From Tricharina praecox (Eukaryota), in the NCBI RefSeq assembly GCF_024521635.1, contig NW_026250406.1:1-64000 (forward strand): a stretch of 64,000 bases of DNA, written 5' to 3'. Below the pieces are notes generated by a model. That model was not told where the DNA came from. It worked only from the letters and a program-made list of their open reading frames with translations, and did no database searches. Both the position numbers and the translations under genes were made by a program. This document shows positions 10,559-62,195 of the stretch, piece after piece. The first letter of the stretch is position 1, and each line of letters opens with the position of its first letter.

Positions 10559-10949
10559 CCGAATTTGGCATGAACATCCATGCCGCCCGGGGGGTGAACT
10601 CGCCCGAGAACTCGTTGCCAATTTTGCAACCCTCCAGTGGCTTCTGGTATAGCGATATGCGGCCGCATGCGACAAATAATTAATGTTCTATCTCTCTATG
10701 GCGATATGCAGCACGGCCATTCACGACTTCGATGGTTCGGAACGAATGCTGGATCTGTCTGTTCATCATATATCATCCGATATTTTCACGCCGGTGAGCG
10801 CTCGGAGTGGAAGTGCTCGGAGGGGATGTAGCTTGCCGGTTTCCTCTGCGGCTTTTCCATCCCCCTTTCCTCCCTGAGCGGCGTCTCTCCTTAATCCATT
10901 TCTGCTGATCCAGGCATAACGAGAACACATCTCAGGTACTGATTACCTA

Positions 10950-13900
10950 CCTAGTTAAGCCCCACCAGTGGCTGGCGAATGTGGCTTTCTGCGGCGGTGG
11001 CGATGGCCTCGGTCGGCACCGAAGCAGGGGTTAGACTGTATGCCAGAATTTTCTCATCTTGGACGATCGCCTGAATGTCTTTCGCTTCGCGAACCTCTCC
11101 GTCGATGAGTACCTCGCCACGAAGCTGTGTGAGGCCGAATCCCACAGAGAAATCGCGAAGGTCTGCATTGGGCTTCTGTGCGCCCCGTCATGGGAGTATT
11201 ACGACACGACGAAGAGAACCAAACAAGGAGAACACCGCGGCCGGCACCTGCTGCTGTACGCGATGGTGTTCTGGCCGTGGCACCTTGCCCGTGATGCTGG
11301 GAATGACTGTCGCATCTTGGCTGGCCTCTGGGATAGATTCCTACTGGGCGAACACTGCCGGCGCTGGCTCGACCTTCTCCGCAGGAACGTCATGACCTGG
11401 AAAAACAGTAGGGACGCTTTCTGGCGTCGAGCGTATGCTGTGCAACAAGGAGGACACGATGTCCTCACTTCGGTCTGCGTGTTTGGGTTGGTATCGAAGC
11501 TTACGTCGGTATTCGAGTCCGTGTTCGTGGAGAAGGCCCGCATTGACTGGTTGCTCCTGCAAGCCTGCAGCGTTGGTGACCTGAATGTCGCGGGGTTCTT
11601 ACTCGACAGAAAGGCCGACATTGCGGTCGCCGACGAAGACGGCCAGCCGCTGCTGCATATCGCCCTGCAGCGACGCGAAAAGAAGGTGGCGCGCTTCCTC
11701 ATCGACCGGGGGGCTGACGTGACCACCGCTGACGCATGCGGGCGCACGGCGCTACACCTGGCAGCGATGGAAGGGAGTGAGGTGGTGGTGCGGTGGCTCG
11801 CCGACCGGGGGGCCGATGTCTCGGCATCTGATTATCCCCGATGGAAGACCCTACTGCACCTGCACTAGAACGGCGGCAGGAGAAGACGGCACGGCTGCTC
11901 GTCGACCGGGGAGTCAAAATCTCGGCCGCCGACGAGGACGGGAAGACGCTGGTGTACCTGGCTGCCGAAAAGGGGTTCGGGGCGATCGTTCGACTGCTCG
12001 TCGAGCGAGGAGCCGACGTCTCGGCAGCCAGCAGGTCCGGGCGAACACCTCTGCACCAGGCGGCGCAGAGAGGAAACGTGGCGATCGTGCGGCTGCTCGC
12101 CGACATGGGGGGCGACGTTACGGCCATCGCGAAGTCCGGAGAGACGCCGCTGCACCGGCCGGCGGAGAGGGGTCACGCGGCGGCGGCGAGGTTGCTGATC
12201 GACCGGGGAGCCGACATTGCGGTTGCCGTTCCCAGCGGCGAGACGCCGCTACATGTGGCTGCCGAGAGCGGGTCCGAGGCCGTCGTCCGCTTGCTCGTCG
12301 ACCGCGGAGCCGCGGTTTCGGTCGCCACCGAGAACGGGTTAACACCCGTGCACATGGCGCTGGGGTGCCGGCCCTCGCCATTGGCGGCGCGGCAGCTCCA
12401 CCGCAGGGATTGCCCCGCCGTGCTCAGCGCGCAGCACCAGGCGACTACGCGTCTACTCGTCGAGCGCGGAGCTAGTGTCTCGGCTGCCGATGGGAGCGGA
12501 AAGACGCCGTTGCATGCCGCTGCGGAGAAGAGGTGCGAGGCGATTGTGCGGGTGCTGCTCGACTGTGGCGCCGGAGCCACGGTAGCCGACAAGTTTGGGA
12601 GGACACCACTTCACGTCGCATCGAGGCGCGGGCACAATGCGATAGCTGGTCTGCTCATCGATCGTGGAGCTGACGTCTGGGCCGTCGATAAGAACGGAGC
12701 GAGGCCGCTGTAGGTCGCTTTGGGAAGGAGGGGCGAGGCCGTGGTACGCCCACTCGTCGACCGCGGTGCAGAATTACTTGCCGCCGACGGAAACGCGAGT
12801 GCCGCGCTCTACGTAGCTCTGCAGAAAGGGTACGCGGACGTCGCCCTAATGCTCGTCAACTGGGGTGCCGACGTCGTGGCCGGAGGCTGCCTAAGTGCAC
12901 CGCTGCACCTGTTCCGACAGCTCGGGTATCAAACGGTGGCGCGGCTGCTGATCGACCGGGGAGCCGACGTCCACGCCGGCAATCAGAACGGGGAAACACC
13001 GCTGCGTCTGGCGTCTGGGAGAGGACACATAGCGATGGTCGCGCTCCTCCTCGACCACGGTGCCACCGTCTCGGCTACGGCCCCAAGCGGTACAACGCCG
13101 CTCTATATGGCGTCGGAGGTAGGCTCCGAGCCGGTGGTGCGGCTGCTGGCCGACCGGTGGCGGACGTCTCTTCCGCCGACGTATCCGGCCGCACTCCACT
13201 GTACCTAGCCTCTGCGGGAGGACACCAAGCGGTGGTCGCGCTGCTCTTCGACCGAGCAGCCGACGTATCAGCTACTGCAACGTGCGGGACGACGCCGCTA
13301 CATGTGGCCGCGGAGATGGGGTCTGAGCCGGTGGCTCGGCTACTCGTCGATCGTGGAGCCGACGTCTGTGCCTCGCACACCACTCTGTCGGGTACACCCC
13401 TGCACCTAGCCTTGCGGCGACGACATCCGTTGGTAACCCGGCTGTTGATCGACCGTGGAGCCGACGTCAATTCCGTCAACTAGGAGGGGCAAGCGCCGCT
13501 GCACGTGGCCACAGAGCGGGGATACGAGGCGGTGGTGCGCCAGCTGGTTGGTCGGGGAGCTGACGTCTCGGCGGTGGATAGATCGGGCCGGACGCCGCTT
13601 CTTGTGGCCTCAGGGCGAGGAGATGAGGCGGTTGCCCGGCCACTCCTTGACTGTGGAGGCGATGTCGCGGCTGCCGACCACGACGGCAGGACACCGCTGC
13701 ACTTGGCCTCGAGCGGAGGACACGAGATGCTCGCCAGCCTGGTGATCGACCGAGGAGCAGATATCTGGGCGGCCGATAATTGGGCGCGGCCACCATTGCA
13801 CCTCGCATCGAGTGGAGGCCACCAGGCATTGGTTCGTGTCCTGCGGGATCACGGCGCCACATGGTTTCCACCCTCTTTCCGATTAAACGTTCCGAAGTGA
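10950..13900 (+). pseudogene. Disrupted NACHT-associated winged-helix plus long ankyrin-repeat gene (NLR C-terminal half)
   Basis: CQNFLILDDRLNVFRFANLSVDEYL and YAMVFWPWHL are post-NACHT motifs, followed by roughly 20 GxTPLHxA..LL.RGADV ankyrin repeats. These are split over five ORFs by frameshifts (about 11840 and 13160) and in-frame TAGs (12711, 13481). No P-loop recognised upstream. Confidence 0.88.
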
Positions 13901-15411: not shown

Positions 15412-18400
15412 ATGTCTCCTTGGCCCCAATTAGAAAGGTTGAAGGCGCGTTGGTCACAGAAAGTGCGGTCGGGTCCGCGATCGGATGAGCACACCAGTGG
15501 CACCGGGAACAAGCAACAGATTCGAACCGGGAACGAGGATCACAAGCGGTCCGGAAACCAGCACCAGAATGTAGCCGGCGACGAGCACCAGCGTCCAACC
15601 GGGAATGAGCACGAGAACCATCTAGATGTTAGTAATCCACGGGCGGAGATCCGAATTGACTTACTTTTGCTAGAGGGACCCGGACAGTTGCTAACGGTGG
15701 TTCACACAGCCGATACTGGAGCGATTTGACTCCGACAGCATCTCTCAGAATGCTTCTGGCAGTCCGAACATCGGTCGAATCGCCAACATCGCCAACACCT
15801 CTACCGCAGACACCACCAGAGATAGCGTGAACGTGACGACAGACGCCTCACGCAGCTACAAGGACTCAAAGCACAACGAACTCGTGCACCCACAATTCGA
15901 TGGGCCCGTAGGAATAGGTACGTCAGCCTGTTATGTTCTACGACTAGGCATCATTTTGACTGATACGGACTGTCTCTATTTAGGAAATACAACGATCTAC
16001 TACATCCCGCCACCTGGCCTTGCCGCAAACGCTCAAACCCGGGAAGACTTGGAAACTTTTGGTACGTAGAGGAAGCTGTAATGCGATTTCAATAGCTTAC
16101 GTGGACCGTGTCACACAGCCGCTGTGTACTGCGCTCATGGCGCCGCATTCAACTCGCGGGGTTCGGATCACGAGCCTACATGCTTGGCAGAAACTCGAGT
16201 CGATCTCCTCGCCGACATAGTGAGCTGGTCAGACACGCCCGACAATGCGTGCATATTCTGGTTGAATGGAATGGCGGGTACTGGAAAGTCCACTATAGCG
16301 CGTACGGTCGCTCGCAACTGGGCAAAGAAGCAACGACTTGGTGCGAGTTTCTTTTTCTCCAAAGGTCAAGGTGACCGGGCCCATGCTTCCAAATTCTTCA
16401 CTACTCTCGCATACCAGCTTGCGTATTCGCAGCCCAGTCTTGCGTTTAGTATCCACAAGGCTATATGCGACCGACCCGATATCCCGCGGCAAACCCTACG
16501 AGAGCAGTGGAAACATCTCATCCTTGAACCGCTTTCTCGGCTGGGTGAAGGTGTATCCTCTCAACCACAGTCGTTGATGCTGGTCATTGATGCGTTGGAC
16601 GAATGCGATGACGAAGAAGACACCGGACTGATACTTCAAATCCTTTCCGAGGCAACTCTCCTCAAAAGCTCGGTGCGTTTGTTGGTATTCGTCACAAGCA
16701 GACCGGAAACCCCGATCCGCCACGGTTTCGTCAAAATACGGAAGGCTGTATATCAACACTTCATTCTCCATGAAATCCCCAACAACATAGTCGATGCCGA
16801 TATATCCAGTTTCCTCCACCACGAATTAAACGAAATCAGGCAATGTCGCCGGTACTTACCCGAACCTTGGCCCGACGAGCAAAGTGTGGGGCGTCTCGTG
16901 CGGAAAGCTGGGGGACTATTCATCTACGCTTCCACAGTATGCAGATTCATCAGGGATAAGGAGCGCTCTCCACAGAAATGTCTCGCCCTAGTATTGGACG
17001 ACAGCAATGAACACGGAACGTCGTCAACCTTGCGGCAACTCGATTTGATGTACCTGAAGATTATACGATACGCAGTCCAAGTTCGAGGTCAGGCGTCGTC
17101 GACCTCAGAAGAGCGACTTTCGCAACGGTTCAGGCAGATCGTCGGATCTATTGTGGTATCAAACGAAGCATTGACTGTTGGTGCCCTATCTGCTCTTTTA
17201 AACATGCAACCGTACGATGTGGACCGAACAGTAGAATCTCTGGGTTCTATATTGCGTTATCCCGAATTCGATGAAACCCCCATTAAGCTCCTACATCCGT
17301 CTTTCCGCGACTTCCTACTTGACAACCGGAGGTGCAACGATCCCCGGTTCAGCATCATTGCGGATAACGCACACAGGGAACTTGCGATGAGGTGCCTGCA
17401 GCTCATGTCACGCCATCTCAAGCAGGATGTGTGCTCCTTAAAGCTCCCTGGTAGCCTCATCGAGGAGATCGATCCTCGGATAGTGCAGCCTTGTCTTCCG
17501 GAAGAGGTTCAGTATGCCTGCAGGTACTGGGTCGATCATCTCCAGCGAAGTGAAACCATACTCCACGACAGCGAGCCACTTCACGACCAAGTGCATACTT
17601 TCCTCAAAGAACATTTCCTTCACTGGATGGAGGCACTGAGCCTGATGCGGAATATGCATGACGGCATTCTCATGGTCAAGGCCATTGCCTCCATGCTCAG
17701 GGTGAGTACTCCAGCCTGTTGATGTTCTGTTTTTCGGATTTGCCGTCGAGTACATTCAGCAGATTCCAGTGCATGGAATTTGCAGAAACTCGGAAGGCAA
17801 AAGTCGCCAAATCGAGGTTATCGGTGTATGATGAAAGCGGACTGTTCGTCAATGACCTTATCGCTCCAGCAGCGGAAGGTGTGACTGCTGCCACGGAATT
17901 TTGCTGACTTTACTTTAGCTGAAGCCTTCCAGTGCCAACTATTCGTTGCAAGCAATGGCTCATGACGCAGTCCGATTTATGCTACATTTCGGATCAATCA
18001 TCGAGATTGCACCTCTCCAACTGTATTCCTCAGCTCTGTCCTTTAGCCCGGGGCGGAGCTTACTGAAGGACCAATTTCGTCATGAAATCCCGGACTGGAT
18101 TGTGGAAGTGGCACTACCGGTTCCCCAGGATTGGGGCGCGTCGCTGCAGGTACTGGGAGGACATTCAGCCATGATCGGAGCGCTGGCTTTCTCGTTTGAC
18201 GGCAAGCTGCTGGCATCGGCATCGGGCGATAGAACCGTCCGGCTCTGGAATCCCGCGACGGGAACCTGCCGCGCCACTCTTGAGGGCCATTCAAAGGGTG
18301 TCAGTGCAGTGGCATTCTCGCCCGACGGCAAGCTGCTGGCATCGGCATCGGACGACAAAACCGTCCGGCTCTGGGATCCCGCGACGAGAACCTGCCGCGC

Positions 18401-20147
18401 CACTCTTGAGGGCCATTCGGATTGCGTCAATGCAGTGGCATTCTCGCCCGACGGCAAGCTGCTGGCATCGGCATCGGCTGACACAACCGTCCGGCTCTGG
18501 GATCCCGCGACGGGAACCTGCCGCGCCACTCTGGAGGGCCATTCAGGATGGGTCAGTGCAGTGGCATTCTCGCCCGACGGCAAGCTGCTGGCATCGGCAT
18601 CAGCTGACACAACCGTCCGGCTCTGGGATCCCGCGACGGGAACCTGCCGCGCCACTCTTGAGGGCCATTCGCGTTTGGTCAGTGCAGTGGCATTCTCGCC
18701 CGACGGCAAGCTGCTGGCATCGGCATCGGACGACGAAACCGTCCGGCTCTGGGATCCCGCGACGAGAACCTGCCGCGCCACTCTTGAGGGCCATTCGGAT
18801 TGGGTCAGGGCAGTGGCATTCTCGCCCGACGGCAAGCTGCTGGCATCGGCATCGGCTGACACAACCGTCCGGCTCTGGGATCCCGCGACGGGAACCTGCC
18901 GCGCCACTCTTGAGGGCCATTCGAAATGGGTCAGTGCAGTGGCATTCTCGCCCGACGGCAAGCTGCTGGCATCGGCATCTATTGACACAACCGTCCGGCT
19001 CTGGGATCCCGCGACGGGAACCTGCCGCGCCACTCTTGAGGGCCATTCGCAATGGGTCAGTGCAGTGGCATTCTCGCACGACGGCAAGCTGCTGGCATCG
19101 GCATCGTACGACACAACCGTCCGGCTCTGGGATCCCGCGACGGGAACCTGCCGCGCCACTCTTGAGGGCCATTCGCAATGTGTCAGTGCAGTGGCATTCT
19201 CGCACGACGGCAAGCTGCTGGCATCGGCATCGTACGACAAAACCGTCCGGCTCTGGGATCCCGCGACGGGAACCTGCCGCGCCACTCTTGAGGGCCATTC
19301 AAAGGGTGTCAGGGCAGTGGCATTCTCGCCCGACGGCAAGCTGCTGGCATCGGCATCGGCTGACACAACCGTCCGGCTCTGGGATCCCGCGACGGGAACC
19401 TGCCGCGCCACTCTTGAGGGTCATTCGGATTGGGTCAATGCAGTGGCATTCTCGCCCGACGGCAAGCTGCTGGCATCGGCATCTATTGACACAACCGTCC
19501 GGCTCTGGGATCCCGCGACGGGAACCTGCCGCGCCACTCTTGAGGGCCATTCAAAGGGTGTCAGGGCAGTGGCATTCTCGCCCGACGGCAAGCTGCTGGC
19601 ATCGGCATCGGCTGACACAACCGTCCGGCTCTGGGATCCCGCGACGGGAACCTGCCGCGCCACTCTTGAGGGTCATTCGGATTGGGTCAATGCAGTGGCA
19701 TTCTCGCCCGACGGCAAGCTGCTGGCATCGGCATCTATTGACACAACCGTCCGGCTCTGGGATCCCGCGACGGGAACCTGCCGCGCCACTCTTGAGGGCC
19801 ATTCGGATTTTGTCAGGGCTGTGGCATTCTCTTTTGATGGCAAGGGGCTCGTATTAACATTGGCCGATAAAGCTGCCAAGTTCTACGAAATTTCTGCACA
19901 GAATAGCAATTTGGAAGTGAAGCCGGGAGCGGTCTCGTATCCAGAGCTCATGTTGAGCGCAAGTAAAGACTGGATATACTCGGGCGGCCGCAGACTGCTT
20001 TACCTTCCCCATGACTATTTCACTTGCTGGTTCGCCGTCAAAAACAATACAATTGCTCTCGGGCAAAGCTCTGGGACAGTTTGTTTCCTTACCTTTGATT
20101 TGGAATTGGTTCCTTTCGGTGAGCTCTCCAAGGCGAATTTATTCTGA
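15412..20147 (+). CDS. NACHT-WD40 NLR-like protein (HET-E/NWD-like), gene A
   Basis: Spliced model with introns at about 15628-15709, 15918-15983, about 16063-16118 and 17702-17918. NACHT with CLAETRVDLL, WLNGMAGTGKSTIARTVA, LVIDALDEC, FVTSRPE, LHPSFRDFL, QYACRYW; then APLQLYSSAL and 14 WD40 repeats (last one degenerate); stop at 20147. Confidence 0.92.
15481..15624 (+). repeat. Six degenerate 24-bp coding repeats in exon 1 of gene A
   Basis: Translation: SDEHTSGT GNKQQIRT GNEDHKRS GNQHQNVA GDEHQRPT GNEHENHL. Confidence 0.75.
18153..19845 (+). repeat. 126-bp WD40 tandem array (13 near-identical units plus 1 degenerate)
   Basis: Unit LEGHSxxVxAVAFS[PH]DGKLLASASxDxTVRLWDPATGTCRAT, nearly invariant at the DNA level outside the x codons. 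Confidence 0.97.
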
Positions 20148-30494: not shown

Positions 30495-30511
30495 ATGATG
30501 ATGATGATGAC

Positions 30512-30572
<61 letters not shown>
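30495..30572. repeat. (GAT)n microsatellite
   Basis: Directly visible. Confidence 0.95.
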
Positions 30573-32463: not shown

Positions 32464-35400
32464 TTATGCAATCCCGTCCAGATCAAGTTTCACGAACCAA
32501 ACCCTACCTGATTGACACCCGAGAGCAACAACGTTATTGTATACTGCGAAAACGTGCGGCCGGAGATCAGAAGGAGGGAGAAGCAATTTTTGCTTTCCCA
32601 AGGTTACCCAGCCCCCACTCAAACTCAGTATACTCTGTGAACTCGTCCCCAGATTAAACCCAATATCAGTACCAGGAGCGACCTCCATGAGTGCTTCACA
32701 CCTGTTAAAATGCAGAACAATAGGAATGAATGGATTAGAGACCGCCACGGTGTTCACTGTTGAAAGGATTTCCTCGACATCGAAGCAGTGGACGGTATTG
32801 TCCCAAGATGTTACTAGAAGGAGCTTGCCATCGGGCGAGAATGCCACTGCCCTGACACCCTTTGAATGGCCCTCAAGAGTGGCGCGGCAGGTTCCCGTCG
32901 CGGGATCCCAGAGCCGGACGGTTGTGTCGTCCGATGCCGATGCCAGCAGCTTGCCGTCGGGCGAGAATGCCACTGCCCTGACCCAATCCGAATGACCCTC
33001 AAGAGTGGCGCGGCAGGTTCCCGTCGCGGGATCCCAGAGCCGGACGGTTTTGTCGTACGATGCCGATGCCAGCAGCTTGCCGTCAAACGAGAATGCCACT
33101 GCATTGACGCAATCCGAATGGCCCTCAAGAGTGGCGCGGCAGGTTCCCGTCGCGGGATCCCAGAGCCGGACGGTTTTGTCGTACGATGCCGATGCCAGCA
33201 GCTTGCCGTCGGGCGAGAATGCCACTGCATTGACGAAACGCGAATGGCCCTCAAGAGTGGCGCGGCAGGTTCCCGTCGCGGGATCCCAGAGCCGGACGGT
33301 TTCGTCGTACGATGCCGATGCCAGCAGCTTGCCGTCGTGTGAGAATGCCACTGCCCAGACCAAATCCGAATGACCCTCAAGAGTGGCGCGGCAGGTTCCC
33401 GTCGCGGGATCCCAGAGCCGGACGGTTTTGTCGTACGATGCCGATGCCAGCAGCTTGCCGTCGTGCGAGAATGCCACTGCACTGACACATTGCGAATGGC
33501 CCTCAAGAGTGGCGCGGCAGGTTCCCGTCGCGGGATCCCAGAGCCGGACGGTTGTGTCAGCCGATGCCGATGCCAGCAGCTTGCCGTCGTGCGAGAATGC
33601 CACTGCACTGACCCATTGCGAATGGCCCTCAAGAGTGGCGCGGCAGGTTCCCGTCGCGGGATCCCAGAGCCGGACGGTTCTGTCGTCCGATGCTGATGCC
33701 AGCAGCTTGCCGTCGTGCGAGAATGCCACTGCATTGACGCAATCCGAATGGCCCTCAAGAGTGGCGCGGCAGGTTCCCGTCGCGGGATCCCAGAGCCGGA
33801 CGGTTCTGTCGTCCGATGCTGATGCCAGCAGCTTGCCGTCGTGCGAGAATGCCACTGCATTGACGCAATCCGAATGGCCCTCAAGAGTGGCGCGGCAGGT
33901 TCCCGTCGCGGGATCCCAGAGCCGGACGGTTCTGTCGTTCGATGCTGATGCCAGCAGCTTGCCGTCGTGCGAGAATGCCACTGCACTGACCCATTGCGAA
34001 TGGCCCTCAAGAGTGGCGCGGCAGGTTCCCGTCGCGGGATCCCAGAGCCGGACGGTTGTGTCAGCCGATGCCGATGCCAGCAGCTTGCCGTCGTGCGAGA
34101 ATGCCACTGCACTGACCCATTTCGAATGGCCCTCAAGAGTGGCGCGGCAGGTTCCCGTCGCGGGATCCCAGAGCCGGACGGTTGTGTCAGCCGATGCCGA
34201 TGCCAGCAGCTTGCCGTCGGGCGAGAATGCCACTGCCCCGACCCTATCCCAATGACCCTCAAGAGTGGCGCGGCAGGTTCCCGTCGTGGGATCCCAGAGC
34301 CGGACGGTTTTGTCGGCCGATGCCGATGCCAGCAGCTTGCCGTCGTGCGAGAATGCCACTGCACTGACACCCCCTGAATGGCCCTCCAGTACCTGCATCA
34401 AGGAATCCCAGTCCTCAGGGACACCCGTAAGGTCTATTATCCAACTCGGGACACTGTCTGCAAAATGATTCCTGAGGATGGCTCCTGATGGGCTGAAAGG
34501 TAGAGCTGCACAGTATAGTTGGAGAGGCGCAATCTCGATGATCGCTCTGGTATTGAGAATGAATCGCACTGCGTCACGCGACATCGCGCGTAAGCTATGA
34601 TTGGCTTTGGGCTGGACGTCAAAGTCAGCATGTTTCGGAACAAGATTCACACCAATTTGCCTGTTGGAGGTAAGCCATCGTCGCTAAAGAGCGAAGCGTG
34701 TATCCACTCCAAATGCCCATCCGCTGAAACCAACGGTACTTTCGTGGATGCTATATACTGGAAGCCCACTTGCGACTGACGACTGACAGACGATGAAGGT
34801 CCAGAAACAGGGAACGCTCGAAAATATTCGGATGGCTCACCGTAAGCATTGAATCTAAAAGCTTAACCATGAGAACAGCGTCATGCATAATACCCATCAG
34901 ACTCCAAACCTCGAACAGGTGGAGAAGGTGTTGCTTGAGGAAAGCGTGGACCAGGTCGTGCAGTGTTCCGCCGTCGCATAGCGTGACGTTACTATGCCGA
35001 ATATGATCCACCCAGTAGCGGCACGCGTACTGCACCTCTTGGGGAAGACAACGCCGTATTGTCGAAGGATCCACTTCACTGGTAAGAGAACCCGGATGTC
35101 GTAAAGAGCATACGTCCTCCTTTAGAGATCTTGACATGAGCGTGAGACAGCTCAATGCAAGGTCCTTGTGAGCATCGTTTCCAACTATGCTGAAATGTGG
35201 ATCCTGACATCTCTGGTCGTCCAAGAGAAAGTCCCGGAACGACAGGTGCAGAAGCCGTATCGGAGATTCTTGACTTCCTGAAACCGAAAACGTCAATACA
35301 GAACTCAGTGAGTCCAATGTTTGCTCCACCTCCGTTAGTTGAGTGCCCAAGAGTTGTGCAAGAGCCCTAGCAGTCAAGGAGTCGGATAGTATCACAATCG

Positions 35401-38400
35401 AACCGACGATCCGCCTGAATCGTTGTAACAGTATCTGTTGCGTCTGGGGCTCACGGCCTTTGATAACCGCATGATCCAAGACCGTCGTATATATCAGGTC
35501 GAGTTGCTTTGTCGACGATCCGTCTTCCACACTTTCTTCCAATACCGAAGCGAGACGATCCTGAGGAACATTGTCCTTGCACCCAATGAATCGGCAGACC
35601 GTTGTAGCGTATATGAACAGTCCATCCGCTTTCTGGACGAGACGGTGGAGCTTTTCGCGATCTGGCCATTCATTCGACAACCGGCGCCGCTTCTGGATCC
35701 TGGATAACTCGTGGAGGAGGAAAACATATATATCTTGATCGATTATTGCGTTGGCAACATTGTGAAGGACAAACTCCTGCCGTGTAGCTTCCTGTATATC
35801 TTGGAACCCGTAGCGAACCGGGGTTTCTGGCCTACTGGTGACAAATATCCGCAATCGCACAGGGGTGAGAGATTTCGCCTGGGAGAGAAGTCCAAGGATC
35901 TGCTCAACATCTGCTTCATCATCGCATTCATCCAATGCATCGATAACAAGTATCAACGATTGCATTTGAGACGGCTGCGACAATGGTTCCAAGATCAGAT
36001 GTTTCCACTGCTCGCTCATGTTCTTCCGGGGGATGTCGGGGTAGGCGCATATAGCCTCGCGAACAGCAGGGGCAAGGCCGGACCGCGCCAGCTGGTAGGC
36101 GATTGTAGTGAAGAATCTCGAAGCACGCGCCAGATATCCTTCACCTCTCGAAAAGAAGAAACTCGCCCCGAGCCGTCTTTCACTAGCCCACTTGCCGGCG
36201 ACCGTACGAGCGATAGTAGACTTTCCAGTACCAGCCATTCCATTCAACCAGAAGATGCATGCACCATCCGAGGCCTCTGACCATTCCATAATTTTCTCCA
36301 GGAGGTCGACTCGCGTATATTCTAAGCATTTTGATTTGCCGTTCGAACCACACGAATCGAACGGGGCGTCGTTGGCGCAGTACTCGGCGGCTATTCACGC
36401 AAATCAGTCGATGAAAACCACAAGACTGTTTCCTAACATACCAAAACTTCTTAACATCTCTTCCTTTTGAGCATCTCTCCCGGAGTCAGGTTCTGGGGGG
36501 TGGTAATGGTTCGTATATGTATCTCCTGCAAACACTTTGTCAGCCAACGGCCCATTGAGTTGCCCGGTCCCGTCTAGAATAGAACGACGAACCAAATGTT
36601 ACACTCCCTTGGATTTTCGGGTAGTTCAACTCGTTGTGCTTCGCGTTTTTGTAAGCACGAGAGCTTCCCGTGAGAATATTGCTGATTTGTGTTGTCGTGT
36701 GCGAGCTGCTGTTCGAGCTGCAGCGGCTGGCTTGGTGACCGATGCTCGGAAGGTTGGACGGATTTTGTGAGGCTACTGCCTCGATATGAAACCCATCTTG
36801 CTCTACTACCATCTACACAAATCACCGTTAGCCGCCGTCAGGATCTTTGATATCGGGAATGCATGCTGACCACCACACCTCCTTGAAGGTTCTTCTGCTC
36901 GTTCCTGGAGGGATTCATTGAGGCTACTGCCTCGATATCGAACGCATCTTGCTCTACCATCATCTGCACAAATCACCGTTAGTCGCCGTCATGATCTTTG
37001 ATATCGGGAATGCATGCTGACCACCACCCCCCCCTGAAAGTTTTCCTGCTGTTTCCCGGATGGATTCGATAGTTCGTCACATGGCGAAACCGACTGCTCG
37101 TCTTCGGATCGGTGCGCCTGCATGTCGTTCCTTCTTTTCAGAACATTCCGGACAGATTCTGAAAGCCTTTCCCTGACTATCACGTAGTCATGGCCGCAGC
37201 TGTCGGGGAGCTCTACCGAGTGATCGACGTCGATCGTGACGTGCTGATGCTTGGCCTCGTTCGGTAGGCCACGGGTCGCTCCTTTCCGCGCGATAGCTCC
37301 AATCAATTCGCCACTTGCCATCCAGCCGACATCTGGTAGTGTGTTCACGGCTTCGGCGCCACCGATTTCGAAAAACGAGACGATTTGAAAACCATCGAGG
37401 TTCGATTTGGTCGCTCTTAAGAAACAATCGTAAGAGGACCTCCAGAATTCGCAGCCTTCCGAAAGGTTATGGATGACGTGTACATCATTCTGGTCCCGTA
37501 TCAATGTCCTCAAGCGTTGGGGGTCAACACCTCGGTCTGGCACTCCGAAGAAAAAGAGGCCGACACACAAGCTCAAGTTCGCTTGATCGCTATCGCCACC
37601 GACCGAGAGTCGAGATGCATCCGCGAGTGCCTGCAAACAATGAGCATCGATCGCGTCCACGGGAAGCGCCACCGTATTGGGTACCTGTTTGATCACCAAA
37701 CGCCCGAGGCTGTGGCCGATGAAGATTACAGGGCGGCCGCGTTCCTGCAGACATCCGTCAACTCTGGAGCCCGCGGTTGGGTTTCTGAGACACACACGTA
37801 CATTCGCTTCCGTCCGCGCTAGGCATATACTCTGCAAGAGGGATCTCGCATAGGTTTGGAGGGTAGGGATGGTGACAATGTTGTCCCGCAGACCCATGTC
37901 GTAGCCGAACGTGAGAACCCTCATGTGCTCTCCGATTTCGATCGGGAATGCCTCCCGTAGCCACATCCTCGGTTGGCCCCGTACGCTCCGTGATCCGTAT
38001 GCACGACCAGCGAGGCCCGCGACAGCGAAAACACTAGCAGTTCTTTTCAGCACAAACTTTACGAACGAACAGAGGGGGAGAGGGAGGGAGGTCCATACTT
38101 TACTGCGGGCTTTTGCGCGCCGAACAAGCTCGGAGTTCCGAGAAAGTAACTTGCTCCCGGGAAATAATCGGAAAGATTCGCAGGATTTCCTTTCGGAAAA
38201 CCAACGGTTGCCATGGCGCCGCTCAACGAGAGCACGAAACCATCGCTTCCGAGCATCATCTTCAAAAGGGTCTTCAACTCATCCTCCGTGACGCCCAGCG
38301 GAATGGAGCGAATTCGGAGTGTCCGGAAGCGAGTCGGCGGCTGGCGTGGCCGGTTCGAGTGCGATGCGGCACCCGCAGGCTCACGGACCGGTGCGCAGCG

Positions 38401-46620: not shown

Positions 46621-47142
46621 ATGCGGGAGATCGGGATAACAGTCCAGAGGACTTTGAGATCTCCGTTCATAGGGCCCCGCAGTAGGAACTCCGATCCAGG
46701 GAAAAACTGTTATGACGAGAGAATCGAACATCGACCGATGGGGGCAGACAACTTCGAGTGAAGAACTCTGCCGGCGCATGAGGGAGATAATTGCTCGGAA
46801 ACTCCGATCTATCTTGGGCGCGTGGTGCTTACCACCTGCCTAGTCGAGAAGACTATCCGAAGAGAGCTGACGACGACTCGAGGCTAGGCCGTGGAACCCC
46901 GATGCAAAGGAAGCGACGCAGCTACGTTAGGCCGCATTCTAGAGGAATCACGTGCTGAGGATCGGAACGACTATAAGTCGAACCGAGCGGGCAACCGAAC
47001 CAAACCACAATCACCGCACCGAACAAACCATCGAAGAAACACCCTTAAGATTATTCCGTTGTGAATTATCGAAATCCCTGACTTTTATTCTACACTCGAT
47101 ATTACCATAGACTCCGACGACACAAACTCGTTCCAGTCTCAC

Positions 47143-47436
47143 AGGTACCCACTCCCACTCTTCCAAGAAACCCTGATGCGGCTATCAGGGGCGAAATACT
47201 TCACCCTGGATATCCGCTGTGCCTACAACCTTGTACGGATGACGGAAGGAGAAGAGTGGAAAACAGCCTTCCGGACACGCTATGGGCTTTTTGAATCTCT
47301 TGTCCTGCCCTTCGGCCTCACCAACACCCCTGCGTACTTCCAAGCTCTGATCAACGATGTGCTACGCCCGTTCCTTGACAGCTTCTGCACCGAATTCATC
47401 GATGACGTCTTTACGAACTCCTTGTTGTCCAAGTAG
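47143..47436 (+). mobile_element. Ty3/gypsy reverse transcriptase fragment
   Basis: [69 protein letters not shown]; truncated on both sides. Confidence 0.92.
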
Positions 47437-47829
47437 CTACTCAAGGCAATGATTTCTGAACTTCGACAGATACCTACTGTACAGAGTGGAACTCAGGGCA
47501 GAACTCAAGGGCAGTGAATACTCCCACAAGTATTATTTCTTTGGTATAGTGCTGTGATGTTTACAAATTATTCCACCACAAGTCCGGTTGTTCACTTATA
47601 TGTTGATAATGATATCCTCCTCCATCACATATCACGCAATATATTCTACATCACTGATTATCACGCAGCACACAGCGCGTCATGAACTGTCACCATGATG
47701 TGTAGTCACTCTGTATTACTCGCCTGCTTTGACCTATCCACCAATTGTGGCCATGGGAATTGAGCGGATTGACACAGGAGGACAACGTCCTCTATTTTCA
47801 TACATAGGAGAATATCTTTGGTCATACAA

Positions 47830-54100: not shown

Positions 54101-55235
54101 GGCGGACCAACGTTTGGCCGCCTCCACCACCAGGTACATACTCTACGAGTACCTACTGAGGGACGCGAAGGAAGAGGCGGCTTGGCGTCATCGGTGAGCA
54201 CCGGAGAGAGGAGACATTGGTGAGACCTAGTGGGACCGATGTGCTATGCTGGTGGGACCCGATGCAGACCTGATCCTGCCGTTAAACGTTAAATTGTTTG
54301 TTGTCACTCTATCTGTTCTTCTTGTTCATGGGTCGGTCTCTGGTCTTCATCATCGACCGAGAATTCTAGTTCATTTGATCATGTTTTTGTTCCTCACCCG
54401 TGTTTGGGCCTCTCCGCACCCAAGTAGGAGGTAGTTGCACAAGCATGATGCAACTTCGTCTCTTTCCCGGTGTTCTGTGGTATGAAAGACCCGACTGCAA
54501 CCGCGGACCGATCAACCAACCCCGACACTGCCGAAGGAAGAGATCGTCCGCACCCTTGGCCACCGGCATGCGAAGCTGGCCTCGTGGAGTTAGACAAGTA
54601 AGTATGATACCTACCGTCGACGTTCTCCTTCGAGCGGCGAACGGTTCAAAGTACAAAGTGATGGCTGATGTGAGACACGCAGGACCTTGGCGCTATCGAC
54701 AGAGCCACTCCAAGCGAATCGTCAGTTCTGGCCGTCGCGAAAACATAAACAGATGGAGTATAGGTAGGTGTAGAAGCACAATGCACGGTTGTACGCGGCT
54801 TCGGTTTTTACCCAATTGTCGAAGGTCAACTTCGTTGTTGGTGGCGACGCTGGTCCGTATCGATAGAGTGGTCGACATTGATGTGCGTTTCTATTGGCAA
54901 CACCGCTCTGTATCGAGGTGTGACTGACTTATGGTTTCATAGAACACGATTGGCCGCAAACCTTCGGCCGCATACTTCGCTGAGGCATTCCCGGCTCAGT
55001 AAAAAAACCACAGGCCCCGCAACCGTCACCCACCAGTACGTTCACTATCTTCACCGTCTCACTCCCACTTTCAGCACGCATCGCCTTCGATATCCTCTGA
55101 CTTAGGAACGCCTTCTGAAACCTAGCCGTGATCAGACGAAAACACAAGATTCTTGAGGTGGATACCTATATCTCCAGCTTCGTTTTTTTTGGCCCGGTGT
55201 TCGGCTAACACATAACCCCAACGCCCTGCAATACC

Positions 55236-58200
55236 ATGTCTAGTGGCGCTGATATCAACGCTGGAGACACCGCCCACAACGCCAACACGATGAACACCGC
55301 TACGCCAAATACTCGTGCCTACAATGCCTCCAAGCACAACGAATTCAATGAACCGGTTTTCCATGGGCAGACAACATTCGGTACGCCACTGCGCTGTGTT
55401 CCGATGTGATATCGCGTGGGGCTGACCTTGGGTAGGAGATACGACCAACTACCACTTCGGCAGAAAAAAAGACGCACAGACACGCGAGTTCTTGGAGAAT
55501 CTGGGTGAGCGATCCCGTCAGAAATGCAGGTTAGCATGAGTACCGATGGCTGACTTCCGATTTCTCTGGCAACAGTAGCTACGAAGGTCGATTGGTCCAT
55601 CCTTTCGCGTCAGTTGTCGGTTGTCGACCAAGGCACCACCTACCGATCCACGTACGTACCTGTCGACCAAAACTCGCCGGATTTCCCTTGGGTCACTAAG
55701 AACATCGACTTCACGAAATGGGAGTCGGACGAGAAGCAGCAAGCTCTGTGGTTATCTGGAGCCTGTGACGCCGGTACGAAGGAGGTGTCTTCCCAAGTCA
55801 TATACAACGCCAAGAAGAAAGCCACTCAGTCGAACGGTTGTGTCTTGTACTTTTTCTGCGCAACCGCAACAGAATCTCGGGATTCGATTGCCACCGTCTT
55901 CGTCCATACGCTGCTCCATCAGATTGTCGGTTTTTCGGGCGATGAGACGGCTCAAGCTATCACCACAACTTTCCTTACGTCACTCTTGGACGGTCATATC
56001 CGGCGAAGTTTGTCGGGCTTCAAGAAGGACGATCCACTGGTTAAAACTGTGGAAAGGATCCTAGACGCTCCCTCATATGACCTTCACATCGCGTTGATCA
56101 ATGCGCTTGCGAAAGCGGGACCCCAGCATCTATCGCTCATCATCGATGGGATCAGCATTGCGGCAATGAAGGGTGATGTGTTCGTTCGGAACGTTTCCCT
56201 CCTGGTGAACCATATGATAGCTGCGGGGGCTGTGGGGGCTGTGGGGGCTACAAGGTTCAAGGCTTTACTCACAAGCTCTCAGTACTCTGAGCTCAAGGGA
56301 TTTCTAGGCGATCTACCGTCCATCCAGTTTCGCCAAGAGCGAGAAGGTTGTTTGTCCATGATTCCAGAGACTGAACAGCAGCTGATTAGCCTGGCAACCC
56401 AGAGATTCTTCGTCTTCTGCAAGACCACGACGGTACACGATATGGAAATATCACCCGACAGCATGGCGGTTCGCTTGAGTGGTTATGGCAGAATGCAGAA
56501 TACCGGAATTGGGAGAAATCGACGACGTCAAAGCTCCTATACATCGAGGGGAAGCCTGGTAGTGGAAAAAGCACTCTTGTGAAATATTTCGAGAGCAACC
56601 TAGCAGAGAAGGTACCAGATTCGACGTCAGCTACTGTGGCCTACTACTTCTACACCCTTCGAGGCACCACCGAGGAGGCCAAGCATGCGAACATGCTGCG
56701 GGCCATTCTGCACAGTATTCTTACGCAGGACGAGTCCGTTTTCCATCATTTCCAGACCGCATTCCGGCACTTTCGATATGCCAAAGAATGGCCATACGAA
56801 TCTCTCAAATCGATCCTATCCTCTCTCGTGGATCATATTTCACCGAAACCGCTCTACCTTATTCTTGACGCAATGGACGAATCCATGGAAGAAGACAGAA
56901 CCGAGATTGTGGAGCTACTCTGCAAGCTGTGTTCAGCAAAAGGCTTTCGTGTAAAGGCGTTTGTTGCCAGTCGCCCGGTTGCCGACCTCAATCTCCTGTT
57001 CACAGAATGGCGTCATTCGATGCATGTCATCAGGCTTCAGCACGAGAACTACGGCGATATCTGCACGTTTACCGATACTTTTCTGACGAAACTCGGGTTA
57101 TCCGAACAGATCCTTCTGGATACTGGTAAATATATCAAAGCCAATGCCGAGGGTGTTTTTGTGTGGGTTCACCTGGTTAAAGCCGAATTAACCCGTTTGC
57201 GATCAACTGGCCTAAGCGATATGCAATTGAGTCATCAACTCAAGTGTCTTCCTCGCAAACTGGAAGAGTTCTACAAGCATATGCTCGACAGGCTGGAGCG
57301 GGAGGGCAGAGATGATGAGGTTCAGGACGGAATAACGCTCGTTCAGTTCGTTCTATTCTCCTCTCGTCCCCTGAATGTTGTCGAACTGCAACATGTTCTT
57401 GCTTTCCAGGCTATGGACTGCGATTCCTCGGTCACTCCTCCACATATTAAGTTCCAGCGACACCTGAGCGACGCCATCGAGGCGAGGATTGCACACTGCG
57501 GCGGCAACTTCTTAGACATTACGGGTAATCCATTGTCGAAATGCAACACGACCGGCGTTTAATGATCTGTGCAGCAGATGGAACCGTTCAACTGATGCAT
57601 CAAACCGCCCGCGAGTTTTTTCTCCAAATTAAACAACATAAACCCGATTCAAAATTCTATCTGAGCAGCCAGAAAACCCATGGCGCAATCGCTACCACTT
57701 CGGTTCAGTATCTGATGCTCTGTTTGGGAAACCCAGAAACCTCCATGAAAGATACCCTGTCAGATACCAAGGGTTGGGGTTCGAACGAGTTTCAACGTTA
57801 TGCCAAATACCTCAACGAGTGGCCGTTGATCACTTACGCAATATTCAATGTCTACTATCATCTAGGGTTGTGCGATACGGGGAAAAGGATTTTACATCTC
57901 GTTAAGAAACTTATCAAAAAGCTGACTAGCATTCCAGGGACCGCATCTCTTGGGAGATTGGTGGCTAGACAACATAAAAAGAAGAAATCTATCCTCACTT
58001 CCATACTAGACATGGCAAGCAGGACGCCTCTACGAAAAATTCCCCCTGAGAGTGCCTCCGACGACTTCGTCCACAGGGCTCTAGATGCTGCCGCCGAGTT
58101 AGATATGCTCCGAGTCTTCGAGTTGCTGCGGTCTACCCACATGCATACACTGGACGAGGTTCTACTGATTTCATGTGTCAGGAAGCGGCTGACAGCTGCC

Positions 58201-61200
58201 TCCAGAGAACTGATCAAAGGAGTCGAAAATATCGACGGTGTAGACGTGGCGGGGAAGTCGGCACTACATCACGCAGTCGAGAACGGGGACCTGACAATAG
58301 CTAGACTGCTGAAAGATGCACAGGCCTCTTCGGGGCTCCGCGATAATCATGGGAACACGCCCGTAGACATAGCCGTTAAGTTGTAGTGAGCTCTCCCTGA
58401 TTACCAGACAAAAGATCGAGTGGCCGGCGTTTAATGTGATTAAACAGGGCTAATTTGACGTTCCAACAGTGGGTGGGTGTCTCCACGGGACCACGAAGCT
58501 CTAACTAATAGTGTCATCACCGATGCCTAATTTCCCGAATCCCAGCTTGTGAGTCTGCAAGCCAATGAAATTTGGTGCCACAATAGGTTTACGTCCCTAA
58601 CGGTTTGCTACAGCTAGTGAGGCTCCCCGCAATCCTTATGTGGCTCCCACGACAGACGAACGATCCTGACGGTTTGGTGCAGCATGTGAGGCTCCCCGCA
58701 ATCCTTATGTGGCTCCCACGACAGACGAACGATCCTGACGGTTTGGTGCAGCCGGTGAGGCTCCCCGCAATCCTTATGTGGCTCCCACGACAGACGAACG
58801 ATCCTGACGGTGTGATACAGGTTGTGAGGCTCCCCGCAATCCTTATGTGGCTCCCACGACAGACGAACGATCCTGACGGTTTGGTGCAGGGAGTGAGGCT
58901 CCCCGCAATCCTTATGTGGCTCCCACGACAGACGAACGATCCTGACGGTGTGATACAGCTTGTGAGGCTCCCCGCAATCCTTATGTGGCTCCCACGACAG
59001 ACGAACGATCCTGACGGTGTGATACAGCGAGTGAGGCTCCCCGCAATCCTTATGTGGCTCCCACGACAGACGAACGATCCTGACGGTTTGGTGCAGCATG
59101 TGAGGCTCCCCGCAATCCTTATGAGGCTCCCACGACAGACGAACGATCCTGACGGTGTGATACAGGTTGTGAGGCTCCCCGCAATCCTTATGTGGCTCCC
59201 ACGACAGACGAACGATCCTGACGGTTTGGTGCAGGGAGTGAGGCTCCCCGCAATCCTTATGTGGCTCCCACGACAGACGAACGATCCTGACGGTGTGATA
59301 CAGCGAGTGAGGCTCCCCGCAATCCTTATGTGGCTCCCACGACAGACGAACGATCCTGACGGTGTGATACAGGTTGTGAGGCTCCCCGCAATCCTTATGT
59401 GGCTCCCACGACAGACGAACGATCCTGACGGTTTGGTGCAGGGAGTGAGGCTCCCCGCAATCCTTATGTGGCTCCCACGACAGACGAACGATCCTGACGG
59501 TGTGATACAGCTTGTGAGGCTCCCCGCAATCCTTATGTGGCTCCCACGACAGACGAACGATCCTGACGGTTTGGTGCAGCGAGTGAGGCTCCCCGCAATC
59601 CTTATGTGGCTCCCACGACAGACGAACGATCCTGACGGTTTGGTGCAGCCGGTGAGGCTCCCCGCAATCCTTATGTGGCTCCCACGACAGACGAACGATC
59701 CTGACGGTGTGATACAGCGAGTGAGGCTCCCCGCAATCCTTATGTGGCTCCCACGACAGACGAACGATCCTGACGGTTTGGTGCAGCATGTGAGGCTCCC
59801 CGCAATCCTTATGTGGCTCCCACGACAGACGAACGATCCTGACGGTGTGATACAGCGAGTGAGGCTCCCCGCAATCCTTATGTGGCTCCCACGACAGACG
59901 AACGATCCTGACGGTTTGGTGCAGCATGTGAGGCTCCCCGCAATCCTTATGAGGCTCCCACGACAGACGAACGATCCTGACGGTGTGATACAGGTTGTGA
60001 GGCTCCCCGCAATCCTTATGTGGCTCCCACGACAGACGAACGATCCTGACGGTTTGGTGCAGCCGGTGAGGCTCCCCGCAATCCTTATGTGGCTCCCACG
60101 ACAGACGAACGATCCTGACGGTTTGGTGCAGCCGGTGAGGCTCCCCGCAATCCTTATGTGGCTCCCACGACAGACGAACGATCCTGACGGTTTGGTGCAG
60201 CGGGTGAGGCTCCCCGCAATCCTTATGTGGCTCCCACGACAGACGAACGATCCTGACGGTTTGGTGCAGCGAGTGAGGCTCCCCGCAATCCTTATGTGGC
60301 TCCCACGACAGACGAACGATCCTGACGGTTTGGTGCAGCCGGTGAGGCTCCCCGCAATCCTTATGTGGCTCCCACGACAGACGAACGATCCTGACGGTGT
60401 GATACAGCGAGTGAGGCTCCCCGCAATCCTTATGTGGCTCCCACGACAGACGAACGATCCTGACGGTTTGGTGCAGCCGGTGAGGCTCCCCGCAATCCTT
60501 ATGTGGCTCCCACGACAGACGAACGATCCTGACGGTTTGGTGCAGCGGGTGAGGCTCCCCGCAATCCTTATGTGGCTCCCACGACAGACGAACGATCCTG
60601 ACGGTTTGGTGCAGCCGGTGAGGCTCCCCGCAATCCTTATGTGGCTCCCACGACAGACGAACGATCCTGACGGTGTGATACAGCCTGTGAGGCTCCCCGC
60701 AATCCTTATGTGGCTCCCACGACAGACGAACGATCCTGACGGTTTGGTGCAGCATGTGAGGCTCCCCGCAATCCTTATGTGGCTCCCACGACAGACGAAC
60801 GATCCTGACGGTTTGGTGCAGCATGTGATGCTCCCCGCAATCCTTATGTGGCTTCTACGACAGACGCGTGATCCTAACTGTTTGGTATAGCTTGTTAGCC
60901 TTCCCGCAAATGATAGGTGCTTCCATGACAGACGGGCAATCCTAACAGTTTGGTGCAGGGAGTGAGGCTCCCCGCAATCCTTATGTGGCTCCCACGACAG
61001 ACGAACGATCCTGACGGTTTGGTGCAGCCAGTCAGTCCTCCGCAAACGACGTGTGCCCCACCAGATTTACGTGCCTGACGGTTCGGTATAGCAAAAGGTA
61101 ACTCCCAGCAAATGAAGTATGGCTCCCACGATTGATGTACATGCCTGACGGTTTGGTACAGCAAGATGTAAACTCCCAGCAAATCATGTCTGCTGCCAAT

Positions 61201-62195
61201 ATACACGAGGGAGCCTGACTATTTGATACGACAGCATGTTAGTCTTCACAACCTACCAGCGTCATCACATTCAATTAGTCGCTAATTACAGACAAACCGC
61301 TAAATTGGACAGAAAGTGACTCTTCTCCCGACTGTGCAGTGATTCTCCTAGTAATATCAAGCCTTAATTTGGTCCGATAGACGGTAATGCTCCGTTCAAA
61401 ATCGCCAATGGATAGGTGAATAACTAACCTATTGGTCCGATCTGATAGCGCGTGAGGCTTCCAAAACTTCGGATGAGCCGTTAGTGCGTCACTAATTTCA
61501 TCCCGATGCCTTAATCCGACAGCGAGTGAGTCTCTTGGGCAATTCGTTCCCATGATCCGTTCATTAAATTGGCCATATGCTAAATGAAAAGACTGTGCGT
61601 TCCACCTCCTACTTTCTTCAACATCGCTAACCCTAACTCGATTGTCCCTTTACCAACAGCCCGTGCGTATTACACACTGTTCTATTCCACGTTTTCTAGG
61701 ATCGATCCTAACTAATTTCACTCCATTGCCGGACTAAATAGGCCGTATGTGTCATCTCACAATGACGTAGTTTTCCATCGCTAACGTCAGCTGAACGGCG
61801 CATTCGACAGCATGTAGGTTGCCCTTACTTACCAACGTTGGAGGGCAAATCAACTCAGTACTATTCTGTGATGCTAATACGGCCTATACATCTTCAGATT
61901 ACAGCTACTCATATGGGATGTCGTGACTCCGAATGAACCGCCACAGGATATTGAACAGTAAGGTTAGGTTTAGGAGACCAGAGAACTGGGCATAAATCCA
62001 CATTGCTAACTGCCCTATGGCTGACCTCATCTTGTGATTTTCAGATTTCTCAAGTCGAAAGTGCTACAGGTGTGGGTGGATTTAGAAAGTGCGTGCTGTG
62101 AGTCGTTTGGTTTTCAGGATGGCAGGTTGGCTAGTTGGCGCTCTTTTCCTATGGCGGGTTTCTCCCACAGGGTTTACCGCATAGGTTTTTACTGA
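55236..62195 (+). CDS. Tandem-NACHT - ankyrin NLR-like protein with microexon cassette, gene C
   Basis: ATG at 55236; introns 55381-55435, 55505-55575, about 56348-56403 and about 57526-57574. Degenerate NACHT1 (LWLSGACDAGTK, LIIDGI), intact NACHT2 (YIEGKPGSGKST, LILDAMDES, FVASRP, AEGVFVWV, VQLMHQTAREF), ankyrin repeats (GKSALHHAV, GNTPVDIAV). Then microexon ladder 58386-61897, exon 61898-61957 (ILQLLIWD..), intron 61958-62044 and a terminal exon ending at TGA 62195. The 3' end is the least certain part. Confidence 0.8.
58386..61897 (+). other. Ladder of 50 introns separated by 49 microexons (47 of 3 nt, 2 of 6 nt)
   Basis: Every unit reads GT donor..branch-like motif (mostly CTRAC/CTAAT)..AG followed by exactly 3 or 6 nt before the next GT donor. 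The pattern persists in non-repetitive units on both sides of the tandem array, and the spliced product is stop-free. Confidence 0.88.
58617..61030 (+). repeat. 69-bp tandem array (35 units; units 1-32 and 35 near-identical) = 66-nt intron + 3-nt exon
   Basis: GTGAGGCTCCCCGCAATCCTTATGTGGCTCCCACGACAGACGAACGATCCTGACGG[TTTGGTGCAG|TGTGATACAG]NNN; starts at 58617, 58686 ... 60756 with exact 69-bp spacing. More diverged homologous units continue to about 61240. Confidence 0.97.

Follow-up and report, generated by a model that had tools for sequence, protein, structure and literature searches.

A ladder of codon-sized microexons between the helices of the last ankyrin repeat of an NLR gene in Tricharina praecox and related fungi

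It is an open question whether the immune-type receptors of fungi are diversified by more than ordinary allelic variation, and the sole case of microexons in such a receptor in the literature that we searched has been credited to one unculturable truffle. Here, we describe a gene at the right end of a stretch of 64,000 nucleotides from Tricharina praecox (assembly GCF_024521635.1, contig NW_026250406.1, positions 1 to 64,000 of the forward strand; this whole stretch is called the window below). The best explanation of the locus taken as a whole, which we hold with good confidence, is one plus-strand gene from about 55236 to 61960 that encodes a fungal NOD-like receptor (NLR) of about 1040 residues and that includes a long ladder of exons of the size of a codon. 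When the joints seen in RNA are combined with the ladder, the spliced sequence is a single open reading frame (ORF) of about 1040 residues from the ATG at 55236 (or at 55290) to 61960. According to Pfam, its domain order is an N-terminus without a family, a degenerate NACHT-like module, a NACHT NTPase and ankyrin repeats.

The ladder begins where the ankyrin ORF 57541..58386 (+) seems to stop: the terminal TAG of this ORF sits on a GT splice donor (..TTG TA/GTGAGC). From there, a chain-walking script found 50 GT..AG introns of 61-84 nt and 49 microexons in 58386..61897, 47 of them of 3 nt and two of 6 nt; 20 shuffled sequences gave chains of 4-10, and the ladder is thus far above chance. It consists of three parts, all on the plus strand. 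The diverged start (58386..58616) has three units with introns of 84, 73 and 65 nt and the microexons TGG, CTT and CTA, and it is supported by the RNA joints 58385>58470 and 58548>58617. The homogeneous array (58617..61030), which emerged from repeat and chain analysis as well as from RNA contigs, has 35 units, each with an intron of 65-66 nt (GTGAGG..CTGAC..YAG) and an exon of 3 nt; Tandem Repeats Finder reports it as a single tandem array at 58596-61028 with a period of 69 bp, 35.3 copies and 92% matches. The diverged end (61031..61897) was read from the sequence and has 12 introns of 61-84 nt and 11 microexons, including the two of 6 nt, and the final microexons encode a conserved ..ELPP motif. 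It is followed by the terminal coding exon (61898..61960, +), identified from the sequence and from homologous exons in relatives, which encodes ankyrin helix 2 and a short tail and ends with the stop codon TAA at 61958-61960. In 39 of the 50 ladder introns, the A of a CTRAC-type branch motif lies 13 nt before the 3' end of the intron.

The variation within the array is concentrated in the exons. Among 32 regular units, all three exon columns are variable as compared to four of the 66 intron columns (Fisher p 0.0007), and the 66-nt intron occurs in three haplotypes whereas the 3-nt exon occurs in eight types. The per-site diversity is 0.594 for the exon and 0.024 for the intron in the array of the window. 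No conserved RNA structure was detected in 26 array introns (three predicted pairs, no compensatory changes), and two units of the window fold worse than shuffled sequences (z +2.4).

All ladder introns are in phase 2 and all exons have 3 or 6 nt, so the frame survives any skip. With all microexons included, the frame is open until the TAA at 61958-61960, and no microexon downstream of CTA ends in TA or TG. Among the 38 3-nt microexons, skipping generates a stop codon only if CTA is followed by GTT or GGA. An array intron that is left in reads NNG TGA, and joining 58385 straight to 61898 would read TAA. Much of this had already been proposed in a first-pass annotation made from the letters alone: the overlap of the TAG with a donor, which is now seen as the joint 58385>58470 in two sequencing runs, the fifty intron-like units with their microexons in exactly the order that our script returned, the stop-free full inclusion, the lack of TA or TG endings after CTA, and the immediate stop upon retention of an array intron all proved correct. 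The proposal that the diverged units keep a spacing in multiples of three stands for the exons but not for the introns, the lengths of which do not follow this rule.

RNA contigs provide direct evidence for splicing. Four runs were compared with positions 54800-58682; this stretch holds one array intron, so that all array-derived contigs stack on that copy, and the contigs are 31-mer assemblies, which break at branches and lose rare variants. The run X1 has no listed differences from the window whereas X2 has 12, and the two metatranscriptomes X3 and X5 reach only 56442-57154, a part of the NACHT exon. The X1 and X2 contigs lack the ordinary introns of the gene (a single X2 contig of 2904 nt is devoid of 55381-55435, 55505-55575, 56347-56402 and 57525-57574), and they are thus cDNA-like. 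In both X1 and X2, 58385 is joined to 58470 with the removal of 84 nt between GT and AG. In X1, 58548 is joined to the start of the next intron (58617) with CTA and CAT in between. At this position, X2 has CCA and CAT, with CCA as an allelic microexon; this replacement of the third microexon removes the sole stop codon that skipping could generate in the organism of X2. Moreover, X1 contains contigs in which the end of an array intron is followed by two, three, four or six microexons and then by the start of an array intron (nine listed strings and one further string), and a loose end past 58616 that runs through the next five microexons. All ten listed strings as well as the loose end correspond to runs of microexons that are adjacent in the genome, and no skip is required to explain any of them. 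The joining of the 3-nt exons is precise and follows the genomic order, in agreement with the first-pass annotation, which had taken the codon-sized exons to be real and the introns to be in phase 2. Since inner ladder introns are gone while their neighbours stay, their removal is not strictly 5' to 3'. Two loose ends of X2, one after 58382 and a separate one after 58612, carry a 27-letter microexon-like string that is out of the order of the window. This string may result from an alternative donor at 58383 combined with skipping, or it may simply reflect the array of that organism.

The ladder is not confined to T. praecox. A contig scan with NACHT alignment yielded 78 related metagenome loci, in which we called a ladder if a diverse plus-strand chain of at least eight 3-nt microexons was present downstream of the NACHT module. 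This was the case for 48 of the 78 loci, and for 48 of the 59 loci with at least 1500 nt of room; the opposite strands of the related loci gave one such chain. In 46 of the 48 loci the ladder starts 842-1449 nt past the NACHT match, as compared to 950 nt in the window. The count of 48 is a lower bound, since L008 was scored negative even though it has a short ladder (5470-6400) with only about 11 diverged microexons and no amplified array. The array introns are homologous throughout the family with conserved 5' and 3' blocks, even across genes with a NACHT identity of no more than 44-58%. Downstream of the ladder, the closest loci (L002, L005, L007, L009, L010 and L012) have a homologous terminal exon. 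In some array units, GC replaces GT at the donor (GCGAGT or GCAAGT; L007:6837-6967, L010:9326-9460 and 10683-10817), which broke the chain detector; these units are either GC-AG introns or dead units.

Several of the ladder-less loci (L032, L033, L035, L038, L062, L068, L070, L071 and L074) have ordinary and partly high-identity ankyrin repeat arrays instead. In L071, a canonical ankyrin helix 2 immediately follows the homologous helix 1; this demonstrates that the ladder sits between both helices of the last ankyrin repeat, just where the first-pass annotation had placed it. The ladder and the ordinary ankyrin array are two alternative builds of the variable sensor in one family.

The nearest named relatives of the NACHT module are proteins of Trichophaea hybrida, Wilcoxina mikolae and Sphaerosporella brunnea (Pyronemataceae; 50-57% identity), and the top matches overall reach 78% identity. 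No Tuber protein is among the 240 best listed matches of the module. Nine public NACHT-ankyrin models of the three species were examined (P0125-P0134); in every one, the protein stops at this helix 1 of the last ankyrin repeat or shortly beyond it, in eight of them within four residues, and some add 2-4 residues that match the first microexons of similar loci. A T. hybrida model is 87% identical to L050, the 41-microexon ladder of which begins exactly at the end of the model. Judged from these protein ends, the ladder is very probably present but unannotated in the genomes of T. hybrida, W. mikolae and S. brunnea. Many other proteins of the family are flagged as partial.

The reading frame of the ladder leaves a clear trace in the sequence. 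We concatenated 1784 microexons of 60 distinct chains and counted stop codons at each offset: 55 among 1820 codons at offset 0, one among 1759 at offset 1, which corresponds to phase 2, and 21 among 1759 at offset 2. The scarcity of stop codons is specific to the genomic order of the microexons. Where a microexon ends in TA, its successor begins with A or G in only one of 173 cases, as compared to 378 of 1505 otherwise (p 4e-19), and after an ending in TG the next one never begins with A (0/46 versus 216/1505; p 0.002). Only one stop was found at 1724 junctions of adjacent microexons, versus 30.6 on average (sd 4.5, minimum 17) over 1000 shuffles within the chains. At distances of two, three, four, five and six microexons, stops occur 16, 18, 24, 26 and 25 times among about 1500 pairs each (1664 at distance two). 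Since the avoidance of stop codons is limited to adjacent pairs, selection acts on the fully included reading. The ladders also have a common conserved head, with a consensus like P-Y-D-S-K-G-R-K, and a common tail (..E-L-P-P). The pairwise change at microexon positions 1, 2 and 3 is 0.548, 0.341 and 0.318 in the head and 0.395, 0.116 and 0.184 in the tail, with position 1 being the third base of the codon. In the conserved head, the interior of the introns and the microexons are equally similar (identity 0.60 for both), a baseline that is inflated by short global alignments. We conclude that the ladder is a real and conserved structure that is translated in phase 2.

These results bear on two other explanations. 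The first is that the gene stops at the TAG at 58384-58386 and that the ladder is a non-coding minisatellite in the 3' untranslated or intergenic region with an incidental AG-NNN-GT pattern. ORF finding with translation table 11 indeed ends at 58386, and the public gene models of the relatives end there as well. However, two runs show the use of the donor at 58386, RNA contigs contain joined microexons, the scarcity of stop codons over 1759 codons and 48 loci is specific to frame and order, and a conserved terminal exon lies downstream of the ladder; we regard this explanation as hardly credible. A neutral non-coding minisatellite would moreover vary evenly and without constraint on the frame, and we rejected it: three of three exon columns as compared to four of 66 intron columns are variable, exons are more variable than introns in 34 of 34 arrays, and the avoidance of stops is confined to phase 2 and to the genomic order.

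The second explanation is the one favoured by the first-pass annotation, which had suggested that exon skipping could produce a very large set of loop variants. In combinatorial splicing, the donors and acceptors of identical introns would pair freely and each transcript would skip other microexons, so that one locus encodes a very large sensor repertoire. The combination of phase-2 introns with exons of 3 or 6 nt would keep the frame upon any skip, more than 98% of the skip junctions at distances 2-6 stay open, stops at distance two (16/1664) are even below the shuffle rate, and the loose end of X2 that leads from 58382 into a microexon string could reflect an alternative donor at 58383 and skipping in the organism of X2. 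On the other hand, neither the ten strings nor the microexon loose end of X1 need any skipping, adjacent pairs avoid stop codons about 16-26 times more strongly than pairs at distances 2-6, and TA-ending microexons are often located upstream of microexons that start with A or G, so that certain skips would truncate the protein. The proposal of combinatorial skipping is thus not supported by our data, and we consider such a repertoire possible but rather doubtful.

The comparison of closely related loci suggests how the arrays change. L072 and L076 are 96.7% identical over 1.5 kb upstream of the ladder and have 78 versus 54 microexons, and L002 and L005 (93.3% over 1.5 kb) have 59 versus 25. 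Even L055 and L056, which are 99.9% identical over the same distance, nonetheless have different arrays. We therefore favour a fast germline turnover of the array, as judged from these sequence pairs. The exons are more diverse than the introns in all 34 arrays, with medians of 0.50 and 0.156 and a ratio of 1.2 to 25 per site, which suggests that the codons are under diversifying selection, that the intron is under purifying selection, or that both apply. In the window, two variants of the intron tail track particular microexon types, as would be expected if blocks of units get duplicated. It is conceivable that all this reflects a selfish minisatellite that is merely tolerated: a splice-competent intron unit would expand by slippage, and the added codons would form a neutral linker with no role in recognition. 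The speed at which units are gained and lost among near-identical genes, the low complexity of the encoded peptides and the existence of L008, with its about 11 diverged microexons and no array, fit this explanation. Neutral co-duplication does not, however, predict microexons that are 1.2-25 times more diverse per site than the introns in 34 of 34 arrays. Moreover, the avoidance of stop codons depends on the genomic order, the head and tail peptides are conserved with a wobble-biased change, and the sequence of the array intron is conserved across genes that share just 44-58% identity in NACHT. We therefore regard a tolerated selfish element as rather unlikely.

Taken together, the two helices of the last ankyrin repeat are separated by a segment that is built codon by codon from 49 microexons, each located between complete short introns with a donor, a branch site and an acceptor. 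Based on these observations, we propose the following model. The fully included mRNA would be the main selected product. The near-identical introns may provide tracts of homology on which unequal recombination or slippage acts; whole codons would thereby be gained, lost and reordered in frame, resulting in a rapid germline diversification of this segment of the receptor. Any ladder intron that is kept would truncate the protein at that codon, since nearly all of these introns start with G-TGA or G-TAA in frame. Transcripts could be diversified further by stochastic skipping from one identical splice site to another, as reported for Tuber, even if no skipping was observed here. It is tempting to speculate beyond this model that the ladder, far from being a peculiarity of the truffle, represents an old "codon cassette" system that spans this family of NLRs in the Pezizales. 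In such a system the splice-competent intron of about 65 nt would be a portable module, and the codon would be the unit of both germline shuffling, by unequal recombination of identical introns, and choice at the transcript level, as any donor could be used with any downstream acceptor; the receptor segment might then be specific to each strain, and possibly to each nucleus or transcript, and it would have been hidden by annotations of culturable Pyronemataceae that end at the first ladder donor. We advance this extended idea only tentatively.

Several points weigh against our interpretation. The status of X1 and X2 as RNA is a guessed label, and the presence of joined forms in DNA runs was not reported. 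No end-to-end fully spliced transcript was found among the 31-mer contigs over 54800-58682, a range that has the 3' part of the ladder and the terminal exon outside of it. There is an in-frame stop in the ladder of L027 and a possible one across a long gap in L008. The recombination mechanism has been deduced from the comparison of loci, and the encoded segments are of low complexity (rich in D, R, L, Y and P). Finally, many X1 and X2 contigs keep ladder introns beside spliced microexons, which indicates that splicing may be inefficient or that the RNA is partly nuclear. This last point leads to another possible role, a retention switch by which unspliced introns mainly yield truncated receptors or throttle expression. 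In 1561 of 1820 ladder introns, the intron bases 2-4 are TGA, TAA or TAG, so that a kept ladder intron ends translation right after the preceding microexon. We do not treat this stop as designed, since the usual fungal donor (GTGAGT or GTAAGT) provides it for free in phase 2. The depth of the contigs is no gauge of retention, and a switch would leave the diversity of the microexons and the open frame upon full inclusion unexplained. We consider a retention switch unlikely, and we retain the fully included ladder as the selected reading.

The remainder of the gene follows the plan of fungal NLRs (STAND proteins, signal transduction ATPases with numerous domains) in its nucleotide-binding oligomerization domain (NOD) and its C-terminal repeats, and it has a second, partial NACHT-like module ahead of the NOD. 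All of its exons are on the plus strand. The 5' untranslated exons (54823..55235) are interrupted by the introns 54883-54942 and 55158-55243 in alternative forms, with the GT..AG joints 54882>54943 and 55155>55242 in X1 contigs, and there is a loose end before 54823. Two alternative introns occur close to the start codon: the intron 55158-55243 (GT..AG) takes out the ATG at 55236, whereas the other form skips the 66 nt 55157-55222 (joint 55156>55223) and has non-canonical ends. The start codon may thus vary between transcript forms. Coding exon 1 (55236..55380) would begin with the ATG at 55236, or with the ATG at 55290 once the intron 55158-55243 has been removed, and an X2 contig starts at 55223. 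The N-terminal 48 residues have no match in Pfam. Coding exon 2 (55436..55504) is delimited by the joints 55379>55435 and 55503>55575, which are GT..AG after a shift. Coding exon 3 (55576..56346) encodes the partial NACHT-like module, which has no intact P-loop (residues 26-110 of ORF P0002 match positions 5-85 of 164 of NPHP3_N, E 8e-10) and may be a degenerate, duplicated NOD; the module is also visible in proteins of Trichophaea, Wilcoxina and Sphaerosporella. The NACHT NTPase proper is encoded by coding exon 4 (56403..57524; joints 56344>56401 and 57523>57574), with the Walker A motif at 56549-56575 and Pfam matches of the region 56399-57520 to NPHP3_N (E 3e-32) and NACHT (E 4e-8). Coding exon 5 (57575..58385) encodes a linker and the ankyrin repeats (about 58201-58380; Ank_2, E 6e-7, on residues 221-280 of ORF P0004) and ends in phase 2 after helix 1 of the last repeat. 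The matches to NACHT and Ank_2 confirm the assignment of the locus to the ankyrin-sensor NLRs in the first-pass annotation.

The window as a whole is an NLR cluster: apart from two NACHT-WD40 genes, it holds a further NACHT ORF at 1326-2372 (-), the gene of which extends beyond the left edge of the window, and ankyrin ORFs at 11059-12713 (+). No ladder was detected next to either this NACHT ORF or the ankyrin ORFs. The NACHT-WD40 genes at 16124-20147 (+) and 32464-36289 (-) are oppositely oriented, and they contain tandem arrays of 126 bp at 18184-19831 (+) and 32822-34386 (-), respectively, with 13.1 and 12.4 copies and 92-94% matches. These arrays encode WD40 blades and are classic highly internally conserved NLR repeats. 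The other microexon-like chains in the window are invariant ones antisense to the WD40 arrays and one chain of ten at 46810-47478 (-), which is inside the range of the shuffled sequences; we judged them to be artefacts or due to chance. Simple trinucleotide arrays are present at 10389-10558 (AGC/AGT-type, 166 bp) and at 30495-30572 ((ATG)26).

Judged against the literature that we searched, the spread of the ladder through a family outside Tuber, the public gene models that end at the ladder, the selection that is specific to the order of the microexons and the rapid turnover at the level of codons appear to be new. Since public models end at the ladder, the sensor domains of these NLRs are systematically mis-annotated. 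The nearest named relatives are culturable Pyronemataceae, which makes RT-PCR, long-read cDNA sequencing and gene replacement feasible. The selection on the fully included order together with the quick germline turnover of the arrays moves the emphasis from diversity made by splicing to recombination at the level of codons. The ladder is also an extreme test of how a spliceosome that works by intron definition handles exons of 3 nt.

In the recursive splicing of long introns at ratchet points, as in Drosophila Ubx, an acceptor lies almost directly before a donor and no bases are left in the mRNA. The ladder resembles these points, as its donors nearly abut the acceptors and each intron that is removed sets up the exon context of the following one. 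Unlike at ratchet points, 3 nt are kept each time, and the order of removal is not strictly processive.

The closest known system is that of the nank genes of Tuber melanosporum. As summarized in later papers, these genes encode NACHT-ankyrin NLRs with tens of 3-nt exons in the sensor that are alternatively spliced, and they were proposed to be a diversification device (Iotti 2012, Fungal Biol 116:261; PMC4986451, PMC3689799, PMC10197012, PMC13449251), so that the precedent to which the first-pass annotation had pointed is indeed in print. A paper from 2026 calls the microexon device of T. melanosporum a lineage-specific strategy (PMC13449251), and we found no report of a microexon NLR from any other species in the literature searched. 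As far as these papers describe the nank genes, the gene of T. praecox shares with them the NACHT and ankyrin domains, the tens of 3-nt sensor exons, a host among the Pezizales and the splicing of the microexons into RNA. It differs in that alternative splicing, the published hallmark of nank, was not seen for the gene in the window; this comparison is one of features taken from citing papers. A second relationship is to the highly internally conserved WD40, ANK and TPR repeats of fungal NLR sensors, which are reported to be shuffled by recombination and to vary at few positions (Dyrka 2014, PMC4986451; PMC13449251). As in these sensors, a near-identical tandem DNA repeat is located in the C-terminal sensor of an NLR, and two such WD40 arrays are present in the same window. 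In those repeats, however, the repeat itself is coding (126 bp for one WD40 blade), whereas in the ladder the conserved repeat is intronic, with just 3 coding bases in 69. Finally, the NB-ARC-TPR candidate receptors of a brown alga are described, in the citing passages, as being diversified by the shuffling of exons that each encode one repeat (Zambounis 2012, cited in PMC10197012 and PMC13449251). On this description, exon-borne receptor units are shuffled in both systems; the exons of the brown alga are whole repeats, whereas those of the ladder are single codons.

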